A DNA stretch of 60,674 nucleotides, taken from assembly GCA_964535015.1 (NCBI GenBank), contig CAZHRU010000005.1, positions 1-60,674 on the forward strand, in the 5' to 3' direction. Made by a program: the position numbers and the translations under genes. The notes under the pieces were generated by a model. The model had not been told where the DNA came from, did no database searches, and saw nothing but the letters and a program-made list of their open reading frames with translations. Origin of the DNA: an uncultured Verrucomicrobiota bacterium (GTDB taxonomy: Bacteria > Verrucomicrobiota > Kiritimatiellia > CAIKKV01 > CAITUY01). Position 1 is the first letter of the stretch. Each line of letters starts with the position of its first letter. Shown here piece after piece: positions 36,971 to 51,184 of this stretch.

Positions 36971-37828
36971 ATGAGTTTACCCTTGGAAACGGCGTTGGGA
37001 ATCGGCGGAACGACTCTCTACTGCCTTTCAGCAGTCCTGGCCCTTGCCGCCCTCTTGCGGTCGGGCGATCGAAAAGATAACGCCCCGGTAATCCTGCTGG
37101 CAGGCGGCATGTTGTTGCTCACGGCCTTGTTATCAATGCGACTCTGTTGCGCCGGTTACGTGCCCGTTTTTTCACGGTTTGACGCCTTGGCCGGTTACAC
37201 CCTGGCCCTCAGCGCCGCCTACCTCCTGTTGTCCGTCTTCCGCCCCACTCGCGGCATCGCCGCCATTCTCGTCCCCTATGCCGCCGTCTGCCTGCTTTGC
37301 GGAGTGTCCGCCCTTCGAATGGGCGCCGGGCCCCCCCTGCCCGTCCAGGGCTTCTGGCTGGTCTCCCATGTGATGTCCGCCTACGCCGCCTTCGGAGTCT
37401 TCACCCTGGCCAGCCTCACCGCCGTGCTATACCTCGTTCAGGACAGCAATCTCAAGCGCAAGCGCCTCGGCCTGGTCTGGGAACGCCTCCCTTCCCTGGA
37501 AACCCTCGACCACCTCATGAGCCGTCTGGCAGGGGTCGCCTTTCTCCTCCTCACCATCTCCGTCGTTCTCGGCTTCGTCCTGATCCGCCAGAGTGGCGGC
37601 GGCGACGACTGGTTTACCGACCCCAAGGTCCTGGCCACCATCGTCACCTGGATCGTTTTGGCCGTCTTCGTCCACATGCGCGCCAGCGCCGACCGGCACG
37701 GACGGGGAATCGCCCTGATGGCCCTCGTCGGCCTGGCCTGCCTGCTCTTCGCCTTCGTGGGCGTACCCCTGGTGGCCCACACCCTGCACTCGTTCCTGCA
37801 AATGCACTCCGGAGTGCCCCCGCCATGA
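36971..37828 (+). CDS. HemX/CcsA-family membrane protein
   Basis: SHV, LPSLETLD, WFTDPKV and C-terminal H; eight TM-like segments; directly upstream of hemA. Confidence 0.85.
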   Translation: MSLPLETALGIGGTTLYCLSAVLALAALLRSGDRKDNAPVILLAGGMLLLTALLSMRLCCAGYVPVFSRFDALAGYTLALSAAYLLLSVFRPTRGIAAILVPYAAVCLLCGVSALRMGAGPPLPVQGFWLVSHVMSAYAAFGVFTLASLTAVLYLVQDSNLKRKRLGLVWERLPSLETLDHLMSRLAGVAFLLLTISVVLGFVLIRQSGGGDDWFTDPKVLATIVTWIVLAVFVHMRASADRHGRGIALMALVGLACLLFAFVGVPLVAHTLHSFLQMHSGVPPP

Positions 37829-39159
37829 CCGTCGCGGTTCTCGGTATCAGTTTTCATACCGCCCCGGTCGAAATGCGGGAACGGGCCTCGGTCCGCAGCG
37901 CCGACATTTCCCTCACCCTGCAACACCTCCGCACCGAGTTCCCGGGTTCCGAAGTGGTGCTCGTCTCCACCTGTAACCGCACCGAGTTGTATACCGCCGG
38001 CATCGACGTGCGCGCCGCCAAACACCGGTTGGTCAAAATCCTCTTGAAGGTGGATGCCCACTTCCCCGCCGATGAGATCGAGAAACACTTCTACGTCAAG
38101 CGCGACCTCGAGGCCGTGGAACACCTGCTGGCGGTTGCCTCCAGTCTCGACGCCATGGTGGTGGGCGAAACCGAGATCCTGGGCCAGGTGAAACAGGCAA
38201 CCGTCATTGCCGAGGAGTCCATGACGACCGGCAAGGTACTGCGCCCCCTCTTCCAGAACGCATTCCGGACCGCCAAACGGGTCCACTCGGAAACCAGCAT
38301 CACCCGCGGCCGGGTCAGCGTGAGTTCCCTGGCCGTCGAGTTTGCCGAAAAGGTCTTCGAGGATCTCAGTTCCAAAACCGTGATGATCGTCGGCGCCGGC
38401 GAAACCGCCGAGTTGGCCCTGAAAAGCCTCGTGGATCGCGGTGCCAAGGACGTCCTCGTCCTGAACCGCTCGCTGGAACGCGGCCAGGCCCTCGCCGATA
38501 AGCACGGCGGCCGCGCCATCCAGTTCGACCTCCTCGAGGATTACCTCCACCGGGCCGATATCCTGATCAGTTCCACCAGCGCCCCCCACGTGGTGATCCA
38601 TGCCGATGCCGTACGCCGGGCCAGCGAACTCCGCCGCGGCCGCCCCATGCTGATGGTCGACATCGCCGTCCCCCGCGACATCGACCCCGAAGCCGCCCAT
38701 ATCAAGAATGTCTACGTCTACTCCATCGACGACCTGCAACGCATCGCCGCCGATAACCTCGCCAAACGGCGCGAGGCCGTCGAACATGCCTGGCACATCG
38801 TCCGCCAGGGCACCGCGGAAGTCGCCGCCCTCTTTGAAACCGCCGAACTCCGCCAGGTGCTTCAAAAGGTGGATGCCTTCGGACGCGACGTCTGCGAACA
38901 GGCCCTGCAACGATCCCTGAGCCGCGAATGCCTGGCCTCACTGCCTGAGGCAAGCCGCGAGGAAATCCGCACCCTGGCCCGGAAGATCGTCAACAAGATG
39001 CTGTCCGAACCGAGGGAGGCTCTCAAGCGGGCCGCCAGGAATAGCGAATGGGATAACTATACGCGGGTCGTCAACGACCTGTTCGGGTTCGACCGGAAGT
39101 CTCCAAACCCCGGGGAACCTGAACCGGAATCGCAACCTCCGTCTACCGGAACGTCATAA
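37825..39159 (+). CDS. hemA: Glutamyl-tRNA reductase
   Basis: TAPVEMRE, STCNRTE, SLDAMVVGETEILGQVK, GAGETA, DIAVPRDID. Confidence 0.97.
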   Translation: MTVAVLGISFHTAPVEMRERASVRSADISLTLQHLRTEFPGSEVVLVSTCNRTELYTAGIDVRAAKHRLVKILLKVDAHFPADEIEKHFYVKRDLEAVEHLLAVASSLDAMVVGETEILGQVKQATVIAEESMTTGKVLRPLFQNAFRTAKRVHSETSITRGRVSVSSLAVEFAEKVFEDLSSKTVMIVGAGETAELALKSLVDRGAKDVLVLNRSLERGQALADKHGGRAIQFDLLEDYLHRADILISSTSAPHVVIHADAVRRASELRRGRPMLMVDIAVPRDIDPEAAHIKNVYVYSIDDLQRIAADNLAKRREAVEHAWHIVRQGTAEVAALFETAELRQVLQKVDAFGRDVCEQALQRSLSRECLASLPEASREEIRTLARKIVNKMLSEPREALKRAARNSEWDNYTRVVNDLFGFDRKSPNPGEPEPESQPPSTGTS

Positions 39160-39177
39160 CAGAGAAAGAAGAAACAC

Positions 39178-40362
39178 ATGATCGGTATATCCAAACTGTA
39201 CTGCGGCACCGTCGAAGCGTCGGACCCCTTGCGATACGGACGTCAATCCAAGGACCTGCCCTCCCACCTGCTCCAGTTTTCGGCCGACAAGAAACCCGTG
39301 GTGGTCTGGAACGTCGGCAGGCGCTGTAACCTGCGTTGCGTGCACTGCTACTCCCAGTCCCGCGACCAGGACTACCCCAACGAATTGTCGCACGATGCCG
39401 GCCTGCGCCTGCTGGGCGATCTCTCCGACTACGGCGTTCCCGTGGTGCTCTTCTCCGGCGGCGAACCCCTGATGCGCCCGGACATCTTTGAATTGATCCG
39501 GTACGCAACCGGCCGCAAGATGCGGGCCGTCGTCTCCACCAACGGAACCCTGATCACCCCCGACGTCGCCGCCCGGCTCAAGGACGATGGCCTTTCCTAC
39601 GTCGGCATCAGCCTGGACGGCCTCGAGGCCACCAACGACCGCTTCCGCGGCGTCAAGGGCGCATTCAAAATGGCCCTGGATGGCGTCCAGAATTGCCTGC
39701 GCGCCGGCGTCAAGGTCGGTCTCCGCTTTACCATGACCCGCGAGAACTACAAGGACGTCGGCGGCATCCTCGACCTGATTGCCCGGGAAGGCATTCCCCG
39801 CGTCTGCTTCTACCACCTGGTCTATGCCGGACGCGCCACCAAGATGGTGCGCGAGGCGCGCATGTCGCATGAGGAGACCCGCCAGACTGTCGACCTGATC
39901 ATGGAACGCACCAAGGCGTTCCACACCCAAAACCGCAAGGTGGAAGTCCTCACCGTGGATAACCATACGGACGGCCCCTACGTCTACCTGCGCCTCTTGA
40001 AGGAAGACCCGAAACGGGCGGAGGAAGTCCTTAGCCTTCTCAAGATGAACGGCGGGAACAGCACCGGCACCGGCATCGGCTGCGTCAGTTGGGATGGCTC
40101 CGTCCATCCCGACCAGTTCTGGCGCCACTACTCGTTCGGCAACGTCAACGAACGCCCCTTCAGCGCCATCTGGTCCGACACCTCCGAACCCCTGCTGGGT
40201 AAGTTGCGTAACCGGAAACAATACCTGAAGGGCCGCTGTGCCGCCTGCAAGTGGCTGGATATCTGCAACGGCAATTTCCGCGTCCGGGCCGAGGCCATCA
40301 CCGGCGACCTCTGGGAAGCCGAACCCGATTGCTACCTGACCGACAAGGAGATCGGACTATGA
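39178..40362 (+). CDS. ahbC: 12,18-didecarboxysiroheme deacetylase (radical SAM/SPASM)
   Basis: MIGISKLYCG...LRYGR...SHLLQFS.DKKPVVVWN..RRCNLRCVHCY; SPASM cysteines. Confidence 0.9.
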   Translation: MIGISKLYCGTVEASDPLRYGRQSKDLPSHLLQFSADKKPVVVWNVGRRCNLRCVHCYSQSRDQDYPNELSHDAGLRLLGDLSDYGVPVVLFSGGEPLMRPDIFELIRYATGRKMRAVVSTNGTLITPDVAARLKDDGLSYVGISLDGLEATNDRFRGVKGAFKMALDGVQNCLRAGVKVGLRFTMTRENYKDVGGILDLIAREGIPRVCFYHLVYAGRATKMVREARMSHEETRQTVDLIMERTKAFHTQNRKVEVLTVDNHTDGPYVYLRLLKEDPKRAEEVLSLLKMNGGNSTGTGIGCVSWDGSVHPDQFWRHYSFGNVNERPFSAIWSDTSEPLLGKLRNRKQYLKGRCAACKWLDICNGNFRVRAEAITGDLWEAEPDCYLTDKEIGL

Positions 40363-41486
40363 CCGACACCCTCCGCCTTGTGTTCTGGGAACTGACGGCG
40401 CGCTGCAACCTGAAGTGCTGCCACTGCCGCGCCGAGGCCGTGGATAACTTCGTCGCCGGCGAGTTGTCCACCGCCGAAATCCTGTCCGTCGCCCGCGACA
40501 TCCGCGAGGCTGGCGACCCCATCATGGTGCTGACCGGCGGCGAACCGCTGGTCCGTAATGACTTCTTCGATATCGCCAAGGCCTGCGTCAGCATGTTCAG
40601 CCGCGTCGCCCTCGCCACCAACGGCACCACCGTGGACGACGCCATCGCCCGGCGCATCGTCGAAACCGGAATCCAGCGGGTCAGCGTCAGCCTCGACGGC
40701 GCCAACGCCGCCACCCACGATGCCTTCCGCGGCGTTCCCGGCAGTTTCGAGGCCACCCTGCGGGGGTATGACGCCATGGCCCGCGCCGGCGTCTCCCTCC
40801 AGGTCAATGCCACCGTCGCACGACACAACATTGACGAGGTCGAGGACCTCTTGAATTTCGTCATCGCCCGAAAGGCCGCCGCGTTTCACGTGTTTGCGCT
40901 CGTCCCCGTCGGCTGCGGCGCCCAGATCAGCGACGACGCCCGGCTTTCCTCCGAACAGATGGAAACATTCCTGCGCTGGCTGTTCCTGAAGTCCATCGAA
41001 TTGCGCGACCGCATTCACATCAAGGCCACCTGCGCCCCCCAGTATTACCGGATCATGCGCGAGGTCTCGCGCGAGCAGGGAATCCCCTTGCCGGGTGCCG
41101 GCCACGGTCATCCCCACGGCCAAGGCCATCCCCATGCCAAGGGTCATGGCGCCGCCAGCGGCATGGAGGCCATGACACGGGGTTGTCTCGCGGGTTCCGC
41201 CGTCTGCTTCATCTCCCGGATCGGCGATGTCCAGCCTTGCGGATATCTCCCCGTCTGCGTCGGCAATGTCCGCAAACAACCGTTTGGCGAAATCTGGCGG
41301 AGTTCACAGGTGTTCTCCGCACTCCGGGACCCCGGAAAACTCCAGGGCAAGTGCGGGTCATGCGGCTATCGCGTGGTCTGCGAAGGGTGCCGGGCCCGCG
41401 CCTACGCCGCCACCTCGGACTTCATGTCCGAAGATCCCGACTGCTCGTATGCCGGAACACCGCCCACAAACCGGGCGCCGAACTGA
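40359..41486 (+). CDS. ahbD: AdoMet-dependent heme b synthase (radical SAM/SPASM)
   Basis: LRLVFWELTARCNLKCCHC, KATCAPQYYRI, RGCLAG, VQPCGY, CEGCRARA. Confidence 0.9.
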   Translation: MTDTLRLVFWELTARCNLKCCHCRAEAVDNFVAGELSTAEILSVARDIREAGDPIMVLTGGEPLVRNDFFDIAKACVSMFSRVALATNGTTVDDAIARRIVETGIQRVSVSLDGANAATHDAFRGVPGSFEATLRGYDAMARAGVSLQVNATVARHNIDEVEDLLNFVIARKAAAFHVFALVPVGCGAQISDDARLSSEQMETFLRWLFLKSIELRDRIHIKATCAPQYYRIMREVSREQGIPLPGAGHGHPHGQGHPHAKGHGAASGMEAMTRGCLAGSAVCFISRIGDVQPCGYLPVCVGNVRKQPFGEIWRSSQVFSALRDPGKLQGKCGSCGYRVVCEGCRARAYAATSDFMSEDPDCSYAGTPPTNRAPN

Positions 41487-41499
41487 CCCAGGGGACCCC

Positions 41500-41835
41500 A
41501 TGCACCGCCTCACCCGTGAACAAAAAACCTTGGAGAAGATGATCGCCCTCTACTGCCGCGATCATCACAAACCCGGGGCGGCGCTTTGTCCCGATTGCGC
41601 GGCAGTCCAGTCCTATGCCACCGCGCGCCTGGAACACTGCAAGTTCGGAGCCGATAAACCCAAATGCTCCGCCTGCCCCGTCCATTGCTACAAACCCGCC
41701 ATGCGGGATGCTATCCGCACCATAATGCGCTACTCGGGACCGCGCATGCTCCTCCACCACCCCGTTCTGGCCCTCGGTCACACCCTGGACGGAGTCTTGA
41801 ATCCTCCACCTAAACGCGGAAGCATCCCAACGTGA
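41500..41835 (+). CDS. YgbA-family Cys-rich protein
   Basis: E.KT...MI..YC..HH....C..C.....YA..RL..C.FG..KP.C..CP.HCY.P.MR..I..IMRYSGPRM. Confidence 0.85.
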   Translation: MHRLTREQKTLEKMIALYCRDHHKPGAALCPDCAAVQSYATARLEHCKFGADKPKCSACPVHCYKPAMRDAIRTIMRYSGPRMLLHHPVLALGHTLDGVLNPPPKRGSIPT

Positions 41836-42848
41836 ATACACCCGCGCCCCCCCCTGACTCCCGGTTGCTCGTGGCTCTCCAGGCCGGACTGCCGTTCGTT
41901 CAACATCCATTCGCGAGCATTGGTGGCGACCTCGGTTTGTCCGAGGACGCCGTTCTGGCGCAAGTCCATGCACTCTTCACGACCGGTGTCGCCCGCCGCT
42001 TCGGCGCCGTCTTTGATTCCCAGAGTCTCGGTTATCAAAGCACCCTCTGCGCCGCCGATATCCCGCCGGACAGCCTCGAGTCGGCCGCCGCCCGGATTAC
42101 CCCTCACCCCGGCATTACCCATTGCTACGAACGGGAAGGACACCCTAACCTGTGGTTCACCCTGACCGCGCCCGCCGCGGAACTGAATCACGAACTGAAA
42201 CGTGTCTCCGAGGCCCTGGGCGGATACGAAGTCCTGAATCTTCCCGCGCTTCAGAAATTCAAGATCGAAGCCGTGTTCGGACGTGGCGACGGTCCGCTCG
42301 ACCCGCCGTCCCGCCAACCAACCGCCACGAATCACCCCGCCCCTCCCCTGACCGAACGCGAACGCCAGGTCGTGCGCCGCCTGCAGGCCAACATCGCCGT
42401 CTCACCGGATCCCTTCGGGGTTCTGGCGTCCGAACTCGGCTTCGATCCCGCCGAACTCCTGGCCCTTCTCAATCGCTGGAAGGAATCCGGAATCATCCGG
42501 CGCGTCGGCCTGGTCCTGCGCCACGGCAAACTCGGGTTTTCCGCCAATAGCATGTGCGTGTGGCCCGTCCCCGCCGACCGGATTACCAACGCCGGGAAAT
42601 CCCTGGCCCTCAGTCCCCACGTCACCCATTGTTACGAACGTCCGTCTTCCACCGCCTTCCAGTATAACCTCTACGCCATGATCCACGCCCGGTCCCGCGA
42701 CGAAGCCGTCGGCATCTTTGAACTCCTTGCCTCCACCGCCCGTCTCTCCAATGGCCGCATGCTCTGGTCGGCGCGCGAGTTCAAGAAATCCAGTCCCGTC
42801 TTTTTCTGTGAACCCCCTCCCACTCTAGGAAAGCCAGGTACCGCATGA
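41832..42848 (+). CDS. Siroheme decarboxylase AhbA-AhbB fusion (NirD/L/G/H family)
   Basis: Two tandem Lrp/AsnC-like units, each with PF...A..LG, RR.G and THCYER. Confidence 0.85.
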   Translation: MNTPAPPPDSRLLVALQAGLPFVQHPFASIGGDLGLSEDAVLAQVHALFTTGVARRFGAVFDSQSLGYQSTLCAADIPPDSLESAAARITPHPGITHCYEREGHPNLWFTLTAPAAELNHELKRVSEALGGYEVLNLPALQKFKIEAVFGRGDGPLDPPSRQPTATNHPAPPLTERERQVVRRLQANIAVSPDPFGVLASELGFDPAELLALLNRWKESGIIRRVGLVLRHGKLGFSANSMCVWPVPADRITNAGKSLALSPHVTHCYERPSSTAFQYNLYAMIHARSRDEAVGIFELLASTARLSNGRMLWSAREFKKSSPVFFCEPPPTLGKPGTA

Positions 42849-43663
42849 ACATCCGCGTTGGAATTCTCTTTGCCACCCCTGGCACCACCTGCGAAAGCGC
42901 CATGGACGTGTATGACCAGATCAGCCGGGCAGCCGAACTCCGCTTCGACGGTGTTGAATCCCGCTGGACCTACACCTCCGCGCCCATCCGCCGCAAACTC
43001 GCCGCACAGGGCAACACCGTCCCCACACCCGGCGAAACCCTCCTGGCCATGCAAAACGAGGGATTCACCCACACCGCCGTTATGCCATTGCATCTCTCGG
43101 ACGGCATGGAGTTTGCCGAATTGGCGCAAACAGTGGCCGACTGGAACCGCAAAGGCCAATCCATGAAGATCGCATTTGGCCACGCCCTCCTGGCTTCGCC
43201 CTCCGACTGGGAACGCGCCCTCCGCGCCCTGATCGCCGACCTGCCAAAGCCCCCCGACGAGAAGGATGGAATTCTCCTCGTCGCCCATGGCAGCCGGGAC
43301 CCCCAGGGGCAGAAGACCATCCTCGCCGCGGCACAACACTGCCGCACGGTTGACCGCCGCCTTATCCTCGGCATGATGCTCGGCAAACCCGGCATCGAGG
43401 ACGTGGTGCGGGAATGCAAGTCAAAGGGGGTTCGAAAAGTGTGGCTTCTGCCCTGCATGGTGGTCGCGGGTTTCTCGGCACAGGCTGACATCGCCGGGGC
43501 CGGCGAACACTCCTGGGCAAGCGCTCTCGAACGCGAAGGCATTGAATCCCTCCCGGTGACCAAGGGGTTGGGCGAAATCAGCGGCATTGTCCAGATCTGG
43601 ATGGATGCCGTTGAACATATGCTGACTGAATTGACGGGACCTGCCGGATGGAAGGTGAAGTGA
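42845..43663 (+). CDS. Sirohydrochlorin chelatase, CbiK-like
   Basis: GTT, PLHL..G.EF, AHGS, P.M.VAG...D.AG...SW, GLGE. Confidence 0.8.
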   Translation: MNIRVGILFATPGTTCESAMDVYDQISRAAELRFDGVESRWTYTSAPIRRKLAAQGNTVPTPGETLLAMQNEGFTHTAVMPLHLSDGMEFAELAQTVADWNRKGQSMKIAFGHALLASPSDWERALRALIADLPKPPDEKDGILLVAHGSRDPQGQKTILAAAQHCRTVDRRLILGMMLGKPGIEDVVRECKSKGVRKVWLLPCMVVAGFSAQADIAGAGEHSWASALEREGIESLPVTKGLGEISGIVQIWMDAVEHMLTELTGPAGWKVK

Positions 43664-44190
43664 TGCGCGACGAGTCGGTAACACATCCCATTTTCCCCGT
43701 ATGCCTGATGCTGGCGGGCAAACCCTGCCTCGTCGTCGGCGGCGGCCCCATCGCCGCCCGTAAAACAGGCCACCTGCTGGAGGCGCAAGCCGATGTGACC
43801 ATTGTCTGCACCGAGGTTAGCCGCGACATGCAGACCCTCGTCTCGGCCGGCAAGATCCGGCTGGTCAAACACCCTTTCACCGAGTCCGACCTCGACGGTC
43901 AATTCCTCGTCATCGCGGCGACCGATAACAGTGCCGTCAACCTCCAGATCATCAACGCCTGCCAGCACCGCAACATCCTCTGCAGTGCCGCTGACGGTAA
44001 CTGGCCAAAGGGCGATTTCATCGTTCCCGCCACCACCCGCAAGAACGGGTTCGTGGTCACCGTGGCCACCGGCGGCCGCTCATGCCGCCAGTCCCGCCTC
44101 GTCAAAGACAAAATTGCCGATATGCTTTCAACCCTTGCCAACGAAGCCACAAAGGACACTACGAATGACGACGGTCAAGACAACTCTTAA
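43663..44190 (+). CDS. Precorrin-2 dehydrogenase (SirC / CysG N-terminal domain)
   Basis: FPVCL....CLVVGGG.IA.RK...LL, LVIAATD, DFIVPA, VTVATGG. Confidence 0.9.
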   Translation: MRDESVTHPIFPVCLMLAGKPCLVVGGGPIAARKTGHLLEAQADVTIVCTEVSRDMQTLVSAGKIRLVKHPFTESDLDGQFLVIAATDNSAVNLQIINACQHRNILCSAADGNWPKGDFIVPATTRKNGFVVTVATGGRSCRQSRLVKDKIADMLSTLANEATKDTTNDDGQDNS

Positions 44191-46300
44191 GGCGGGAACA
44201 CGGAGCAGTCCGCTCGCCCGACTCCAGACCCGCGACGCCCTCGATAAACTCGAGGCGTGTTTCCCCTCTTGTTCCTTTGTAGATATACCTCTTTCCTCTC
44301 CAGGCGACCGTGACCTCAAGACCGACCTGCGGGAAACCCCGGCGGATTTCTTTACCCGGGATCTCGACCTCAAGATCCTGGACGGTGAACTGGATTGCGC
44401 CGTCCATAGCGCCAAGGATCTTCCCGATCCCGTGGCCGAAGGGCTCGACTGGTTCTGGCTGCCCTGGCGCGAGGATGCCCGCGATGTCCTCATCCGGCCG
44501 CGCGGTCAAACCGTCGCCACCCTCCCGCCCGATGCCAGGATCGGCGTCAGTAGCGCCCGCCGCGAGGCCTACTGCACCACCCGCTTCCCCAAGGCGCGCC
44601 AACTGCCAATTCGCGGAACCATCGAACAGCGGTTGGCTCAACTGGACCGGGGCGACTTCGATCTGATCGTCATGGCTGGCGCCGCCCTGAACCGGCTCGG
44701 ACTCCAGGACCGCATTACGGAATGGATCCCGGAAGCAACCCTTCCCCCGCCGGACGGCCAGGGCGCCCTGGCCGTAACCTTCCGCGCCGGTGACGAACGT
44801 TTCCTCCACCTGCGGCGCTTGTTCACCAAGTCTGTCACCTTCGCGGCCGCCGGTGTCGGCTCGGCCGGCGCCTGCACCCTCGAATGCCTCCATGCCCTCC
44901 AACGGTGCGACATCTGCCTCCATGATACCCTCCTCGGCCATGATCTGTTCGGCATGTTGCCCCCATCCGTCCAGTGCATTGACGTCGGCAAACGCTGCGG
45001 TCAGCACAGTATGCCACAGGACGAAACCACCTACCTGATCACCCGCTACGCCCGGCGCGGCCTGAAAGTCGTGCGCCTCAAGGGCGGCGATCCCGGCATC
45101 TTCGGACGCCTCGCCGAAGAGGTCGAGGCCCTCGATGCCCTGGCCCTGCCCTACCGGGTCATGCCCGGAGTCAGCAGTTTGAGCGCCGCCACCTCCACCA
45201 CCGGCATGTTGCTCACCCGGCGCGGAGTCTCGCGCGGCTTCACCGTCATGACTCCCCGTAAGGAGGGAGGCGGCACCGGTTCCGTCGCCGCCGATGTCCG
45301 CATGAAACTGCCCATCGTCTTCTTCATGGCCCTCTCCGTCGCCGACGAAGTGGCCCGCCAACTCATTGCCGAGGGCCTCTCACCCACCACCCCCGCCTCC
45401 GTCGTCTACGGCGCCGGCAGTGACCAGTCGCACTCCATCACCGGCGACCTCACCTCCATCGCAACCCTTATCAAACAAACTCAAACCGAACTCCCCGGCC
45501 TCCTTATCATCGGGGATGCCGCAAAATATCACTACCCCAACTGGGGCGCCCTCGAAGGACGCCGCGTCCTCCTGACCGCCAGTCAGGCCTTGCAGGACAA
45601 GGCCGCCGACCTTGTTGCCGACTACGGCGGCGTCCCGGTGTGCCGCCCGCTGATCAAACTGGAAACGACAACCGTGGCCCTTGACCGCATCCGCCAGATC
45701 AAGTCCTATGACTGGGTGGTCCTGACCTCACCTTCCGCCGTTCGGTGTTTTGGCGAACTCCTGCAAACCGCCTGGATCGATCGCCGTAAGGTCCCCACCC
45801 TCGTCACCTGCGGCGGCGGCACCTCCAAGGCGCTCTGGGACCTCGGCCTTTCCGCCGATATCGAACCCGCTTCCGAGTTCAGCGCCAACAGCCTCCTGGC
45901 AACCGTCCGCCCCCTTGTGAAACCCGGCTTGCGCGTCCTGCGCCTGCGCTCGGACAAGGCCGGCCCCGATCTTGCCGCAGAACTCAAAACCATGGGCGCC
46001 ACCGTGGACGATTGTGTTCTCTATCTGAATCGCCCCATCCCGCATGACGACAAACCCGACTTCGACGTTGCTTTCTTTGCCAGTGCTTCCGCCGTCGAAG
46101 TGTACGACCAGCAATGGAGCGCGTCCTCGCTCAAGGACAAGTTCGTCGTGGCCATCGGTAAACCAACTCTGGCCGCCCTGAAGAAGTCCGGCGTCACCCC
46201 CGATCTCGTCCCGCCCGAAGCCACCGTGGAATCCAGCATGGAAGCACTCGCCTGCCACTTTTCCCGACACGGCCTGCAAACCCTCAAGGAGAAACGATGA
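44165..46300 (+). CDS. HemC(domains 1-2)-CobA(SUMT)-HemD triple fusion
   Basis: GTRSSPLA, AVHSAKDLP, SSARR, GQGAL; then VVRLKGGDP.IFGR..EE, PGVSS; then RVLLT, WVVLTSPSAV, FFASASAV. Confidence 0.9.
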   Translation: MTTVKTTLKAGTRSSPLARLQTRDALDKLEACFPSCSFVDIPLSSPGDRDLKTDLRETPADFFTRDLDLKILDGELDCAVHSAKDLPDPVAEGLDWFWLPWREDARDVLIRPRGQTVATLPPDARIGVSSARREAYCTTRFPKARQLPIRGTIEQRLAQLDRGDFDLIVMAGAALNRLGLQDRITEWIPEATLPPPDGQGALAVTFRAGDERFLHLRRLFTKSVTFAAAGVGSAGACTLECLHALQRCDICLHDTLLGHDLFGMLPPSVQCIDVGKRCGQHSMPQDETTYLITRYARRGLKVVRLKGGDPGIFGRLAEEVEALDALALPYRVMPGVSSLSAATSTTGMLLTRRGVSRGFTVMTPRKEGGGTGSVAADVRMKLPIVFFMALSVADEVARQLIAEGLSPTTPASVVYGAGSDQSHSITGDLTSIATLIKQTQTELPGLLIIGDAAKYHYPNWGALEGRRVLLTASQALQDKAADLVADYGGVPVCRPLIKLETTTVALDRIRQIKSYDWVVLTSPSAVRCFGELLQTAWIDRRKVPTLVTCGGGTSKALWDLGLSADIEPASEFSANSLLATVRPLVKPGLRVLRLRSDKAGPDLAAELKTMGATVDDCVLYLNRPIPHDDKPDFDVAFFASASAVEVYDQQWSASSLKDKFVVAIGKPTLAALKKSGVTPDLVPPEATVESSMEALACHFSRHGLQTLKEKR

Positions 46301-47292
46301 ATACCTACCCTGAAGTTCGATTGCGCCGCCTGCGCCGCACCCCCGCCCTCCGGCGCCTATTCGATATGCCCATGCCCGGTCCCGACAAGTTCATGTGGCC
46401 CGTGTTCATCAAGGATGGCAAGGGCATCCGGGAACCCATTGACGCCATGCCCGGCCAAAACCGGATGAGTGTCGATGTCCTGCTCAAGGACCTCTCCCGT
46501 GTCGTCAATTCCGGCGTGGGAAGCATTCTGATCTTCGGACTGGCTGAACAGGCAGGCAAGGATGCCGCGGGCACCGCCGCCTATGACGACTGGGGCGCGG
46601 TGCAGAAAGCCATCCGCCGCATCCGCAAGGAATTCCCCGATCTCATCATCGCCTCGGACGTCTGCGTCTGCGCCTACACCTCGCATGGCCATTGCGGCCC
46701 CCTCACCACCTCCGGCGACGTGGATAACGACGCCGCCAATGTCATTCTGGCACGAATGGCCGTTTCCCACGCCGCCGCAGGCGCCGACATCGTCGCCCCC
46801 AGCGCCATGATGGATGGCCAGGTGGCCGCCATCCGTCAGGCCCTCGACGAGAACGACTTCCAGCAAACCATCCTCATGAGTTACTCGACCAAGTTCGCCT
46901 CAAGCATGTACGGCCCCTTCCGGGAAGCCGAGGAATCGGCGCCGCAAAAGGGCGACCGGCGCGGTTATCAGGCCTCCTACGCCGACCCCCGCCAGGCCAT
47001 GCGGGAATCCCAACTCGACGAGGCCGAAGGCGCCGATATCCTGATGCTCAAACCCTCCCTGTTCTACCTCGACATTCTCACCCGCCTGCGCGATCAAACC
47101 GACCTCCCCATCGCCGCCTACAACGTCAGTGGCGAATACTCGATGCTGATCGCCGCCGCCGAACGCGGCTGGGGCGACCTCGGCAGCATGGTGCGGGAAT
47201 CAACCACCGCCCTCGCCCGGGCCGGGGCCGATATCATCATCTCCTACTGGGCCAACCGGTATGACGAGTTCTTCAGAAAGGGCATCCAATGA
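46297..47292 (+). CDS. hemB: Porphobilinogen synthase
   Basis: RLRRLR, DVCVCAYTSHGHCG, APSAMMDG, YGPFREA, MLKP, YNVSGEYSM. Confidence 0.97.
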   Translation: MNTYPEVRLRRLRRTPALRRLFDMPMPGPDKFMWPVFIKDGKGIREPIDAMPGQNRMSVDVLLKDLSRVVNSGVGSILIFGLAEQAGKDAAGTAAYDDWGAVQKAIRRIRKEFPDLIIASDVCVCAYTSHGHCGPLTTSGDVDNDAANVILARMAVSHAAAGADIVAPSAMMDGQVAAIRQALDENDFQQTILMSYSTKFASSMYGPFREAEESAPQKGDRRGYQASYADPRQAMRESQLDEAEGADILMLKPSLFYLDILTRLRDQTDLPIAAYNVSGEYSMLIAAAERGWGDLGSMVRESTTALARAGADIIISYWANRYDEFFRKGIQ

Positions 47293-48566
47293 CTTCAAGG
47301 GAATTGTTCGACAGGGCAACACGCGTCATTCCAGGCGGCGTGAACAGTCCGGTCCGCGCCTTCAACTCCGTCGGAGGGGACCCCCTCTACGTGGTAAGCG
47401 GCAAAGGCTCACGCATCATGACTGTGGATGGCGCCGAACTCACCGATTTCTGCGGCTCCTGGGGCCCCCTCCTCTTCGGCCACGCCCGCCAGGAAATCAT
47501 CGCGGCCATCCAGAAAGCCGCATCCGAAGGCACCAGTTTCGGAATCAACACGCCGCGCGAAGTTGAGTTTGCCGAGCAACTCCACGAACGGGTCCCTTCC
47601 ATGGAAATGATCCGACTCGTCAGTTCCGGCACCGAGGCCGTCATGACCGCCCTGCGCCTCGCCCGCGGATTCACGGGCCGCAGGAAACTCCTCAAGTTCG
47701 ACGGATGCTATCACGGCCACACCGATGCCATGCTGGTCTCCGCAGGCAGCGGACTTCTCACCGGCGGCATCAGTTCCTCGGCCGGCGTCCTCTCCACGGA
47801 CGCCCAGGAGGTGTTCGTGTCCCCCTACAACGATCTGGAGGCCGTTCAACGCATCGTTCAAAAGGAAGGCGCCGATCTGGCGGCCATCATTGTCGAACCT
47901 GTCGCTGGCAATATGGGGCTGATCCCACCCGCACCGGGCTTCCTCGCCGGCCTGCGCAAACTGACCGCCCAATGCGGCGCCCTGTTGATTTTTGACGAAG
48001 TCATCACGGGTTTCCGCCTGGGCCCCACAACCTACGGCACACTCTGCGGGGTAACCCCGGACCTGACGACTCTCGGCAAGATTATCGGCGGCGGCATGCC
48101 GATTGGCGCCGTGGGCGGCCGCGCCGACATCATGCGCAAACTGGCCCCACTCGGCCCCGTCTATCAGGCGGGCACCCTGAGCGGCAATCCCGTCGCCGTA
48201 GCCGCCGGCCTGGCCATGCTGCAACTGAGCGTCACCGAAAACCCCTATCCGAAATTGGATCTCTTGGGACGCCGCCTGACCGATGGCATGAATGCGGCGG
48301 CACGCAAGGCCGGCCTGACTCTCCACTGCACCGGACTCGGCGGCATGTTCACCCCCTTCTTCATGAATGACGCCCCCACCGATCTGGCGACCGTAAAACG
48401 TTGCAACACCAAGACCTACGCCGCCTTCTTCCGGGCCATGCTGACTCGCGGATTCTATCTGCCGCCTTCACAATTCGAAGCCGCCTTCATTTCCGCCGCC
48501 CACAGCGAGGACGATGTCTCCCGATTCCTCACGGCGGCAAGTGAAGTGTTCGCAACCTTGGCCTGA
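47289..48566 (+). CDS. hemL: Glutamate-1-semialdehyde 2,1-aminomutase
   Basis: PGGVNSPVRAF, SSGTEA, FDGCYHGH, FDEVITGFR, GKIIGGG, YQAGTLSGNP. Confidence 0.97.
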   Translation: MTSRELFDRATRVIPGGVNSPVRAFNSVGGDPLYVVSGKGSRIMTVDGAELTDFCGSWGPLLFGHARQEIIAAIQKAASEGTSFGINTPREVEFAEQLHERVPSMEMIRLVSSGTEAVMTALRLARGFTGRRKLLKFDGCYHGHTDAMLVSAGSGLLTGGISSSAGVLSTDAQEVFVSPYNDLEAVQRIVQKEGADLAAIIVEPVAGNMGLIPPAPGFLAGLRKLTAQCGALLIFDEVITGFRLGPTTYGTLCGVTPDLTTLGKIIGGGMPIGAVGGRADIMRKLAPLGPVYQAGTLSGNPVAVAAGLAMLQLSVTENPYPKLDLLGRRLTDGMNAAARKAGLTLHCTGLGGMFTPFFMNDAPTDLATVKRCNTKTYAAFFRAMLTRGFYLPPSQFEAAFISAAHSEDDVSRFLTAASEVFATLA

Positions 48567-48916: not shown

Positions 48917-49861
48917 TCACTCGTACGTTCGACTCACTTGTTGGGTGATGTATTCTGCTCTTTCCTCCAAGAGCATCATCTGTTCTGGCTTTGGTTCCAG
49001 CCCATGATTATGTTTCTGGATGTTTGCCGGAAAGTTGAAAACCAACGCCTCAACCACAGACCTACGGTTCTCGATCTTTCCGCCAGAGTGGTAAAAGTGA
49101 TCTCGCGTCACGATGTTGAATTTGCTCCAAAGGGAATCAATGAAGGGATTGGAACGATAATCATTGTGGTGCCACGTCGAAAGTATGAACCGCGCCGGCG
49201 AGGCCGAGAGGAGCGCAAACAGTCTCTTCTCATCCTCTTCCTTCCAACCACTATAATAGTCAACATATCGCCCGATGTAGGGGGGATCACAGTAAATGAT
49301 GTCGTCTTTGGATGCTTCGGCAATGACTGCCGCGAAATCCTCGATATTGAACGTCCATCCCGACTGGATCAGACACGCAACATCATGCACCTGATTTACG
49401 ATCTTCGTCACGTATGCCGGAGCGAACCGTTCCGGTTTCTTACAAAAAGGTATGTTCCATCCCCCTTTCCGGTTGAACCTCATCATCCCATTGAACCCAG
49501 CACGGGAGAGAAAGAGAAAATCCAGCGGGTCATGTGACTCGTTAAAACGATCTCTGACGGTTCGGAAATGCTCGTAACCCTTGTCCGGTGCCTTTTCGAG
49601 CAGCGCCCCTTCACGTTCAAGATACTCGCGCACACATTTCGGTGTGATCTCGCGGTTCTTGATTGCTTGATAGAACCGAATGAGGTGGGGGTTGACGTCG
49701 CCCAGTAGTGCCTCGCCAAAACCAGAGTTGAAAGCGACAACTCCGGTTCCGAGGAAAGGTTCAATCCATCGGCCCTTAACGGCTGGTACTAACGCCTGAA
49801 TCCAAGGCACCAACTTCGTCTTAATGCCTTGACTCTTGATCGGGGGGGTAATCACTCGCAT
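48917..49861 (-). CDS. Dam/M.EcoRV-type N6-adenine DNA methyltransferase
   Basis: G.KTKL, IEPFLGTG, D.NPHLI, YCDPPY. Confidence 0.9.
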   Translation of the reverse strand: MRVITPPIKSQGIKTKLVPWIQALVPAVKGRWIEPFLGTGVVAFNSGFGEALLGDVNPHLIRFYQAIKNREITPKCVREYLEREGALLEKAPDKGYEHFRTVRDRFNESHDPLDFLFLSRAGFNGMMRFNRKGGWNIPFCKKPERFAPAYVTKIVNQVHDVACLIQSGWTFNIEDFAAVIAEASKDDIIYCDPPYIGRYVDYYSGWKEEDEKRLFALLSASPARFILSTWHHNDYRSNPFIDSLWSKFNIVTRDHFYHSGGKIENRRSVVEALVFNFPANIQKHNHGLEPKPEQMMLLEERAEYITQQVSRTYE

Positions 49862-50784
49862 GCTGCCTCGGCGGTCTTAGTCTTCTTCTTCGTTGTAATC
49901 GGCACAATCTTGCGTTTGTCCCCACGTTTGAAGTCCAGAAAGTCCTCGATTGACCTGATCGGCGTGGCCTTGCCTCTCTTCAGACGCGTAGTGACGCCGT
50001 GGTTCATCCAGTATTCGTCAAACCACTCCTCCCCGAGTCGTGCGAAGACGCCGTTTCCGTTTAGTATGTCTTCAATCCAGGTGATCGACCCGATGTTTGC
50101 AGTGTTGCCAGAACCTTGCTTGTCGCTCGCGAGACGCCACTTCTCGCAAACAAAGAATTGGAAGTCCCGGACCACGGAAGCAATTGACCGAAGACTGTCA
50201 ACAGAAGTCAGGCGGTAACGATGAACTGGTTCGGCAACTGGACCGTCATCCAACTCCTTGACATGGACGATTTCTGTGTCGGCCAAGTCCTTTGCCGCAG
50301 TTCTCGTGTAGATGATTCCCAAGCAAAAGTGCCCGAAGTACTCCGAATATGGGAATTGAATGTTCTTGGTGGACGTTCGCTCCTTAAAGTAGGCGCCGTG
50401 GCTGCCGAGAGTGAACCCATTTACATGGCCGGGGAAATCCGGATCGCGGTACGTAGTCTTAAGGTCAACAGCAAACTTTACAGACTGGTTGCTCTGTTTG
50501 ACAAAACTGAAGTCAGGATACCAGTTCTGGTGTTCGGCCAGGACGATCGAATAACCATTGTCCTGGGCGAACTGGAGAATCCTCGGGAAAAGGTGGATTT
50601 CAAGGATCTTGGAGACGATCTTGGTGTCGGAACTGATTGTGTAAATGTTCTTGAAAATGTCGATAAACCCCTTGACGGTCCACTGCCCGTTTTCAGCAGA
50701 AACATACCCGCCAAGTCCCCGAACGAAATCTGTCAGGGCGGCCGAGAATGCGTCCTTCTCCGTCTGTCGCTCTTTGTTGTTCAT
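49852..50784 (-). CDS. EcoRV-family type II restriction endonuclease
   Basis: SDTK, QN.YPDF, AVDLKTTY, FTLG, KNI.FPY, EKW..A.D..GSGNT.NIGS match EcoRV as I recall it. Confidence 0.85.
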   Translation of the reverse strand: MNNKERQTEKDAFSAALTDFVRGLGGYVSAENGQWTVKGFIDIFKNIYTISSDTKIVSKILEIHLFPRILQFAQDNGYSIVLAEHQNWYPDFSFVKQSNQSVKFAVDLKTTYRDPDFPGHVNGFTLGSHGAYFKERTSTKNIQFPYSEYFGHFCLGIIYTRTAAKDLADTEIVHVKELDDGPVAEPVHRYRLTSVDSLRSIASVVRDFQFFVCEKWRLASDKQGSGNTANIGSITWIEDILNGNGVFARLGEEWFDEYWMNHGVTTRLKRGKATPIRSIEDFLDFKRGDKRKIVPITTKKKTKTAEAACE

Positions 50785-50849: not shown

Positions 50850-51184
50850 CTGGGGATGGCGATCAAGCGCGTGTTGCCGCATCCTCCTGATGACACTGCT
50901 GGGCCGTGAGGCGCCTCACTTAAATGCAGAAACAATCTTCTCAGACTTTGAAATCCGAGTGATGGGGCTCTTCGCTAAAAAACACAAACTCACGCTGCCA
51001 ACATGCCTGGGTGAAGCCGTCCTTCTCGTCGCTAGGCTGGGCGGTTATATGAACCGCGGCAACGACCCACCGCCAGGCGCCGAAGTCCTCTGGCGTGGAT
51101 CTCTACGCCTCACTTTGCTTTGTGACGGGGTCGCGTTGGCGGAGTCACTCAATTTGTCTTGAAGTATTTGTGTGTAAAGGGCAG
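50850..51184 (+). mobile_element. IS4-family (IS50/Tn5-like) remnant: transposase C-terminus plus terminal repeat
   Basis: RILLMTLLGRE...ARLGGYMNR.NDPPPGAEVLWRG with the upstream part frameshifted or lost. ATTTGTGTGTAAAGGGCAG (51166-51184) matches the Tn5 mosaic end at 13/19. Confidence 0.75.

Follow-up and report, generated by a model that had tools for sequence, protein, structure and literature searches.

How does a bacterium build its first linear tetrapyrrole when its hydroxymethylbilane synthase (HMBS, the HemC protein) lacks the domain that anchors the cofactor? The question is raised by a triple fusion gene in a stretch of 60,674 nucleotides (the window; positions 1 to 60,674 of contig CAZHRU010000005.1, GenBank assembly GCA_964535015.1) from an uncultured Verrucomicrobiota bacterium of the class Kiritimatiellia. 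In every HMBS structure solved so far, a dipyrromethane is bound covalently to a cysteine of domain 3 (PMC7959689); the gene joins a HemC module without domain 3 to CobA, a uroporphyrinogen III methyltransferase (SUMT), and HemD. The comparisons described here favour, with a probability of roughly 0.6, the reading that the N-terminal module is an active HMBS of a widespread two-domain lineage working without a cysteine-anchored dipyrromethane. Bacteria of this class and their relatives would thus probably carry out a textbook reaction of haem synthesis in a manner not described so far. The gene is laid out as follows:

44165 to 46300, forward strand: the hemC(short)-cobA-hemD triple fusion gene, 711 amino acids, ATG 44165, TGA 46300.
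44165 to 44827, forward strand: the short HemC module, domains 1 and 2 only, residues 1 to 221.
44828 to 45538, forward strand: the CobA/SUMT module, residues 222 to 458.
45548 to 46297, forward strand: the HemD uroporphyrinogen-III synthase module, residues 462 to 711 approximately.

HemC domain 3 is absent from the fusion, not diverged. Pfam places PF01379 at residues 9-213 (E 1.2e-51), PF00590 at 224-432 and PF02602 at 480-690, and PF03900, the domain-3 family, was not found in the fusion at E <= 0.1. The TIGR00212 profile passes its cut-off (181.6 bits against 164) on positions 1-215 of its 293 only; residues 5-215 of Escherichia coli HemC align with residues 7-216 of the fusion, where the alignment ends, and 25 residues separate the QG motif from the first SUMT strand. 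In the AlphaFold2 model of the fusion (predicted local distance difference test, pLDDT, 86; predicted template modelling score 0.83), about 200-219 residues can be overlaid on solved HemC chains, which are 281-345 residues long, with a root-mean-square deviation (rmsd) of 1.6-2.5 Å, and the domain-3 part of those chains is essentially unmatched; for E. coli HemC (1PDA) the values are Z 22.9 and rmsd 1.8 Å over 209 aligned residues. Finally, a domain-3 hidden Markov model (HMM) built from 44 full-length relatives and searched at --max gave nothing significant in the fusion or in 433 proteins of the short class (best E 0.2), and nothing significant in the six frames of the genome (best E 0.16). 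The sequence-only reading, which had described a HemC without domain 3 and its cofactor cysteine fused to CobA and HemD, is borne out by these data; the case that it had named against itself, a domain 3 present in diverged form, was checked with this HMM and no domain 3 was found. Neither Pfam nor this HMM revealed a split or diverged domain 3, and chance, frameshift and misassembly are ruled out: the same three-domain architecture of about 710 residues recurs in more than 100 database clusters, in most of the relatives' genomes and across the class. Close homologues of the fusion are labelled Kiritimatiellia.

Is the shortened module still a working deaminase? This is very likely, as the sequence-only reading had supposed: no other hemC was detected, the catalytic residues are all in place, selection on the module is purifying, and hemB occurs along with it. 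That reading had also asked for another hemC elsewhere; in the host genome (3.0 Mb, 87% complete) the fusion is the only PF01379 match, no PF03900 lies above cut-off, and no second or full-length hemC was found in the 87% covered. The module keeps R13, S15, Q21, D48, S82, K84, D85, R132, R133, R150, R156, R177, Q199 and G200, which correspond in that order to E. coli R11, S13, Q19, D46, S81, K83, D84, R131, R132, R149, R155, R176, Q198 and G199. The catalytic motif lies here:

44405 to 44428, forward strand: the catalytic HSAKD motif, followed by D88.

In 280 short HemC cores, less than 70% identical to each other, R13, Q21, D48, H81, K84, D85, R133, R150, G151, R156, R177, Q199 and G200 are conserved at about 100%, and the position of E. 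coli R131 at 84%. Of the eight substrate-site residues that PMC7959689 lists, the fusion retains seven; at the eighth, human N169 is replaced by T152, and human Asn169 tolerates substitution in a mutational scan (PMC10577081). The uncorrected ratio of nonsynonymous to synonymous polymorphism (pN/pS) of the HemC module, 0.18-0.40, is similar to or lower than that of HemD, and by this sequence measure the module is under purifying selection. A stand-alone member of 221 residues is predicted to fold by itself (pLDDT 94.8); its model superposes on residues 3-222 of E. coli HemC (Z 23.0, rmsd 1.8 Å, 205 aligned), and its next-best structural matches are periplasmic binding proteins with Z of at most 12.6. 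The reaction is probably the usual conversion of porphobilinogen (PBG) to hydroxymethylbilane (HMB).

In a sample of 251 genomes of the class, PF01379 was detected in 163 and hemB in 162. Both genes were present in 159, hemC only in 4, hemB only in 3 and neither in 85. It is therefore highly improbable that the module is inactive, or a PBG-binding relic whose step is filled by another enzyme or by haem uptake. Such a relic would fit the facts that the lost domain is essential in all HMBS enzymes studied, that the genome is incomplete, and that domains 1 and 2 have the fold of type-2 periplasmic binding proteins (Z about 11-12.6), but it is contradicted by catalytic residues that are invariant in 280 divergent sequences, by purifying selection and by the near one-to-one occurrence with hemB. 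It is also hard to reconcile with the retention of short HemC in single-contig Chlamydiota genomes of only 1.0-1.3 Mb and with the class sample, where 7 genomes match PF03900, each through one full-length hemC, and the remaining 156 of 163 genomes with the core have no domain-3 match.

The short form is not peculiar to one class. In nearly all Chlamydiota sampled no other form was found; PF01379 was detected there in 101 of 120 genomes and PF03900, weakly, in one, and the short HemC proteins of Chlamydiae that the sequence-only reading had mentioned are thus real. In the one genome with the weak domain-3 match, the frame is 332 residues long and probably encodes a full-length HemC. Complete stand-alone short hemC genes of 221-233 residues, with their own stop codon and no CobA attached, lie inside contigs, some of them in a chlamydia-type rnc-radA-hemC-hemD locus near genes of the hemE and hemF families. 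In Auribacter and Omnitrophota the short hemC is also unfused, in the order hemA-hemC-cobA/hemD-hemB-hemL. Where fusion partners of short HemC were seen, all of them were tetrapyrrole enzymes (HemA, SirC, CobA, HemD); other architectures of the short module are HemC-HemD without CobA, HemA-HemC and SirC-HemA-HemC.

A quick, unrooted tree was computed from domains 1 and 2 only, with Shimodaira-Hasegawa-like approximate likelihood ratio test (SH-aLRT) support. A single branch (SH-aLRT 96) splits the 99 short HemC rows from the 44 full-length rows, and the triple fusions sit in several separate sub-branches. On this evidence the short HemC is one inherited lineage, and its fusion to cobA-hemD is a repeated secondary event. 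The HemC of the fusion groups with the other domain-3-less HemCs and carries their D50/D61-F62 signature. Because the tree is unrooted, it is compatible both with a loss of domain 3 and with its ancestral absence, so that the two-domain state may have either origin.

On the tree, the seven full-length HemCs of the class are spread among those of other phyla, a pattern that suggests several replacements by transfer and a function in which the two forms are interchangeable. In some class members the triple fusion was derived separately; its SUMT motif I is also eroded, but differently, and has no Cys at position 237. Two triple-fusion copies, each beside its own hemB, occur in a single genome of the same order. 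A metagenome-assembled genome of Clostridiales encodes, in an 819-residue frame, a HemC-CobA-HemD fusion that retains domain 3; the triple fusion therefore does not depend on the loss of the domain.

Which changes accompany the missing domain? Human residue equivalences are given by register (offset +14 at K84/D85, which equal Lys98/Asp99, and +17 to +18 later), and the full-length set used for comparison comprises only 44 proteins, with a bias in favour of HSAKD-type sequences. Human Arg116 forms a salt bridge with domain-3 Glu250 (PMC10577081). The corresponding R102 is present in 100% of the 44 full-length relatives, in 15% of short forms and in 57% of the Kiritimatiellia-type sequences, and is kept in the fusion. 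Positions 152, 155 and 195, which are invariant in the full-length relatives, are likewise relaxed in short forms. The lid is changed as well:

44303 to 44359, forward strand: the remodelled lid loop, residues 47 to 65, with the DFFT motif and the signature residues D50, D61 and F62.

In this loop the position of E. coli K55 is Glu and K59 is deleted. In the human enzyme the lid lysines intermittently hold the displaced cofactor, and Thr102 contacts cofactor ring c1 in the ES2 state. The position of Thr102, D88 in the fusion, is D or E in about two thirds of short forms and mostly T, S or A in full-length ones. Taken together, two or three acids at positions 50, 61 and 88 occur in 258 of 280 short forms and in none of the 44 full-length proteins.

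In canonical HMBS, on the six-site model for the human enzyme, the four rings of the product fill the substrate site together with sites 1-3, and the rings of the cofactor finally lie in sites 4-5 towards domain 3 (PMC7959689). By sequence, the short enzyme seems to retain the binders of the first four ring positions and to have lost or acidified those of the last two, and the first PBG could therefore serve as its own non-covalent primer. On this simplest view the enzyme would polymerise PBG without a separate primer, ring A probably priming its own chain. The first PBG would bind non-covalently, three further PBGs would be deaminated at the R13/Q21/D85/R150/R156 site, and the chain would ratchet through the arginine cleft. 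D88, D50 and D61 might hold the aminomethyl group of ring A or block further sliding, so that elongation stops at four rings, after which ring A would lose ammonia and be hydrated to give HMB. In work by Battersby (1982) the canonical deaminase reportedly acts on aminomethylbilane. The fuller proposal, that an old deaminase lineage centred on Omnitrophota and the Planctomycetes-Verrucomicrobia-Chlamydiae (PVC) group polymerises PBG cofactor-free, with ring A as primer and an acid-lined four-ring stop, and may preserve an ancestral two-domain state, is offered tentatively, as somewhat under an even chance.

The module could also be active in two other ways. One, in line with the non-covalent cofactor that the sequence-only reading had suggested, is that a dipyrromethane is permanently but non-covalently bound, held by the arginines of domains 1 and 2, and that a six-ring chain is cleaved as in canonical HMBS. 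The residues to which the cofactor binds in the holoenzyme (E. coli R131, R132, R155, R176, D84 and K83) are all kept, and the proposed release is self-catalysed by the acetate of ring A and needs no domain-3 residue (PMC7959689). However, the displaced cofactor goes to sites 4-5, where it is bound loosely among domain-3 arginines and lid lysines; with these residues missing or acidic here, an untethered primer would probably be lost, and we regard this explanation as unlikely. The other is a covalent anchor on a nucleophile other than cysteine within domains 1 and 2, for example K84, S82, S129 or T64. All four are conserved at 99-100% in short forms, T64 and S129 more so than in full-length forms, but in canonical enzymes, too, K84 and S82 are just as invariant, as residues that bind the substrate, and a fixed residue of the cleft could not slide during elongation as the cofactor loop does. 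An anchor of this kind is distinctly unlikely.

The preferred reading, an active two-domain HMBS without a cysteine-anchored dipyrromethane, has to be weighed against several points. On the one hand, no biochemistry was found for any member of the short HemC group, human Cys261 is intolerant to mutation (PMC10577081) and the HMBS apoenzyme is regarded as unstable (PMC7907807); short forms would therefore need some compensation, which is only inferred. On the other hand, some of the supporting evidence is itself open to other explanations. Human Lys70, Lys74 and Lys79 tolerate substitution, so that the missing lid lysines are by themselves weak evidence; the new acids may serve to cap helices and not as ligands; the acid signature was counted against the biased set of 44; the agreement between hemC and hemB is inflated by operon linkage and shared ancestry; and 87% completeness limits what can be said of this genome.

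The cysteine could also be borrowed, and here the fusion partners come into question. Residues 1-221 were docked by complex prediction against a dimer of residues 222-458. The docking score was 0.72 (best control 0.02), with contacts agreeing by at least 92% between runs and a partner pLDDT of at least 86; among solved complexes 58 of 80 reach the mark that this score exceeds, and among mismatched pairs 2 of 110, figures that are only roughly valid for this job. The predicted contacts join CobA residues 223, 296-299 and 326-329 to HemC residues 95-100 and 209-221, the first of which form the following element:

44447 to 44464, forward strand: the domain-1 edge strand D95 to P100, the predicted CobA docking face.

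Since the docked halves belong to one natural chain, the result supports the docking geometry only, and the small interface (26-28 contacts) likewise counts against reading more into it. W96 and W98 are specific to the Kiritimatiellia-type lineage (89% and 93%), and D95, R297 and G299 vary little or not at all. Human Thr109, Ile110 and Ile113, in the register of D95, W96 and L99, pack on domain-3 residues 317-320, which lie within a human-specific insertion, and in the AlphaFold2 model of the whole fusion, which is independent of the docking, CobA residue 297 superposes on human HMBS 318-319. In these models CobA appears to cover the domain-1 face that domain 3 covers in human HMBS, without supplying a cofactor loop; it would be a structural patch on an exposed domain-1 edge and no cofactor donor.

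The candidate for a borrowed residue is Cys237 (44873-44875) of CobA; the other form of the idea is that a separate protein takes the role of domain 3 in trans. Cys237 is conserved in 93% of 45 Kiritimatiellia-type fusions, coincides with an odd SUMT motif I and stands in the chain near the expected place of E. coli Cys242. Nevertheless, it occupies the L/I position of the canonical SUMT "DxxLLT" motif, only 9% of other triple fusions have Cys there, stand-alone forms and HemD-only fusions lack an attached CobA, and some stand-alone database entries have no Cys at all. Neither Cys237 nor any catalytic residue is named among the predicted contacts, which lie on the outer domain-1 strand, although residues not named are uncertain. 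A family-wide substitute cysteine is ruled out: in the 280 short cores no column exceeds 20% Cys, and there is no GGC-type loop. As to a partner in trans, no domain-3 homologue was detected in the genome, the arginine that makes the salt bridge with domain 3 is relaxed, and no shared unknown gene was seen beside the short hemC loci examined. The borrowed cysteine that the sequence-only reading had entertained is thus improbable in either form.

That reading was right about a diverged SUMT N-terminal motif. Motif I of the fusion (AAGVGSAG at 44846-44869) reads AAGVGSAGAC, against GAGPGDPG in Pseudomonas aeruginosa NirE and GAGPGD in CysG; the Kiritimatiellia-type fusions have throughout lost the Pro and the Asp and kept Gly230 and Gly232. 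The change is probably tolerated, because the other SUMT motifs are invariant: D254, L256, GK, RLKGGD, F313, R315, E318-E319, G335 and M388 do not vary in the 45 Kiritimatiellia-type fusions, and the PF00590 domain carries the D, GK, RLKGGD, FGR, PG and M motifs. TIGR01469 scores 184.3 on the module, just below its cut-off of 185. The module is the only SUMT-type gene found in the genome, the other PF00590 match being RsmI and not a second cobA, and sirC, chelatase and ahb genes share its operon. It is predicted to methylate uroporphyrinogen III to precorrin-2. The HemD module (PF02602, 129.3 bits, above cut-off), the genome's sole match to that family, has the uroporphyrinogen-III synthase fold (Z 17.1, rmsd 2.8 Å, 233 residues aligned to 4ES6).

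The fusion is thus the only hemC, cobA and hemD detected in this genome. In the proposed scheme HemD would cyclise HMB to uroporphyrinogen III and CobA would methylate this to precorrin-2 for the sirohaem/Ahb route; the fusion itself would be secondary, a short hemC having joined a pre-existing cobA-hemD gene. Substrate channelling between the three modules, as the sequence-only reading had pictured it, is possible but unsupported: the order in the chain, HemC-CobA-HemD, differs from the order of the reactions, HemC, HemD, CobA, and unfused short HemC homologues are common in many genomes.

The gene lies within an operon of overlapping genes (ccsB-like, hemA, ahbC, ahbD-like, ygbA-like, ahbAB, CbiK-type chelatase, sirC-like, the fusion, hemB, hemL). 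The start of the fusion overlaps the end of sirC and its stop overlaps the start of hemB (ATGA). From its gene content, the operon is predicted to cover the full route from glutamyl-tRNA to haem (Ahb). The neighbours on the two sides are:

37825 to 44190, forward strand: the upstream operon genes hemA, ahbC, ahbD-like, ygbA-like, an ahbAB fusion, a CbiK-type chelatase and a sirC-like dehydrogenase.
46297 to 48566, forward strand: hemB, whose product makes the substrate PBG, and hemL, downstream.

The head of the operon is a CcsB/HemX-like membrane gene (36971-37828), and a small gene of the YgbA family ("nitrous oxide-stimulated promoter") lies between ahbD and ahbAB (41581-41835). The sirC-like gene (43648-44190) encodes only about 175-180 residues, with PF13241, a weak PF14824 and 146 of the 205 positions of TIGR01470, and apparently lacks the C-terminal part of SirC/CysG-N. 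Upstream of the operon, at about 4900-27600, nine open reading frames (ORFs) with 4-13 CxxCH motifs form a multihaem cytochrome island, which implies a high haem demand. Directly after the operon (48917-50784) there is an A+T-richer pair of ORFs, by motif an adenine methyltransferase-like (DPPY) and a type II restriction endonuclease-like gene, followed by a probable transposase remnant at 50890-51162, all as judged by sequence.

The existence of the short form is already known, since NCBI names the chlamydial protein hydroxymethylbilane synthase (PRK01066). A literature search found no study of the mechanism of domain-3-less or chlamydial HemC, most subscription journals being outside that search. 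What is added here are a count of how often hemC and hemB occur together, the signature of new acids and a prediction of where CobA docks. An enzyme that naturally lacks the anchor is a test of the cofactor's role, of chain-length counting and of bilane release, which are debated for the human enzyme, and the stand-alone version of 220 residues can be expressed and assayed by standard methods. Two practical aspects follow: the HemC of Chlamydiota is unlike the human one, a difference that an inhibitor could exploit, and for the engineering of haem and B12 the triple fusion is of interest because it leads naturally, within one gene, from PBG to precorrin-2.

How does the fusion compare with systems already described? 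With canonical HemC/HMBS (E. coli 1PDA/1AH5, human 7CCX) it shares the fold of domains 1 and 2 (rmsd about 1.8 Å over about 205-210 residues), 33-34% identity, the residues of the substrate site and arginine cleft, and the position in the pathway. Unlike the fusion, the canonical enzymes have domain 3 with its cofactor loop, Cys242/261 and arginines; the fusion has instead a D-x(10)-DFFT lid and an attached CobA-HemD.

The nearest relative in form is the chlamydial short HemC (NCBIfam NF002202/PRK01066, 241 positions), which also consists of domains 1 and 2 only. Its name is an annotation and its function a prediction. A stand-alone relative from a chlamydia-type locus scores 271 against the PRK01066 cut-off of 251 and falls on the same side of the tree as the fusion module, whereas the latter scores 151.4 bits, below that cut-off, and belongs to a separate Kiritimatiellia/Lentisphaeria sub-branch with the W-x-W docking strand.

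Bifunctional CobA-HemD fusions are known in Clostridium and Desulfovibrio. Those of Omnitrophota and Auribacter, encoded by genes of 463-467 residues, have the same domain order as residues 222-711 of the fusion. There, the short hemC lies directly upstream of the cobA/hemD gene; here, the two are joined in frame, and motif I is without its Pro and Asp. The SUMT enzymes NirE (2YBO/2YBQ), the C-terminal module of CysG (1PJQ) and CobA (1S4D) share the central motifs with the CobA module, whose best sequence match in the PDB reaches E 6e-42 over the whole module, and the GAGPGD of NirE and CysG corresponds to AAGVGS in the fusion.

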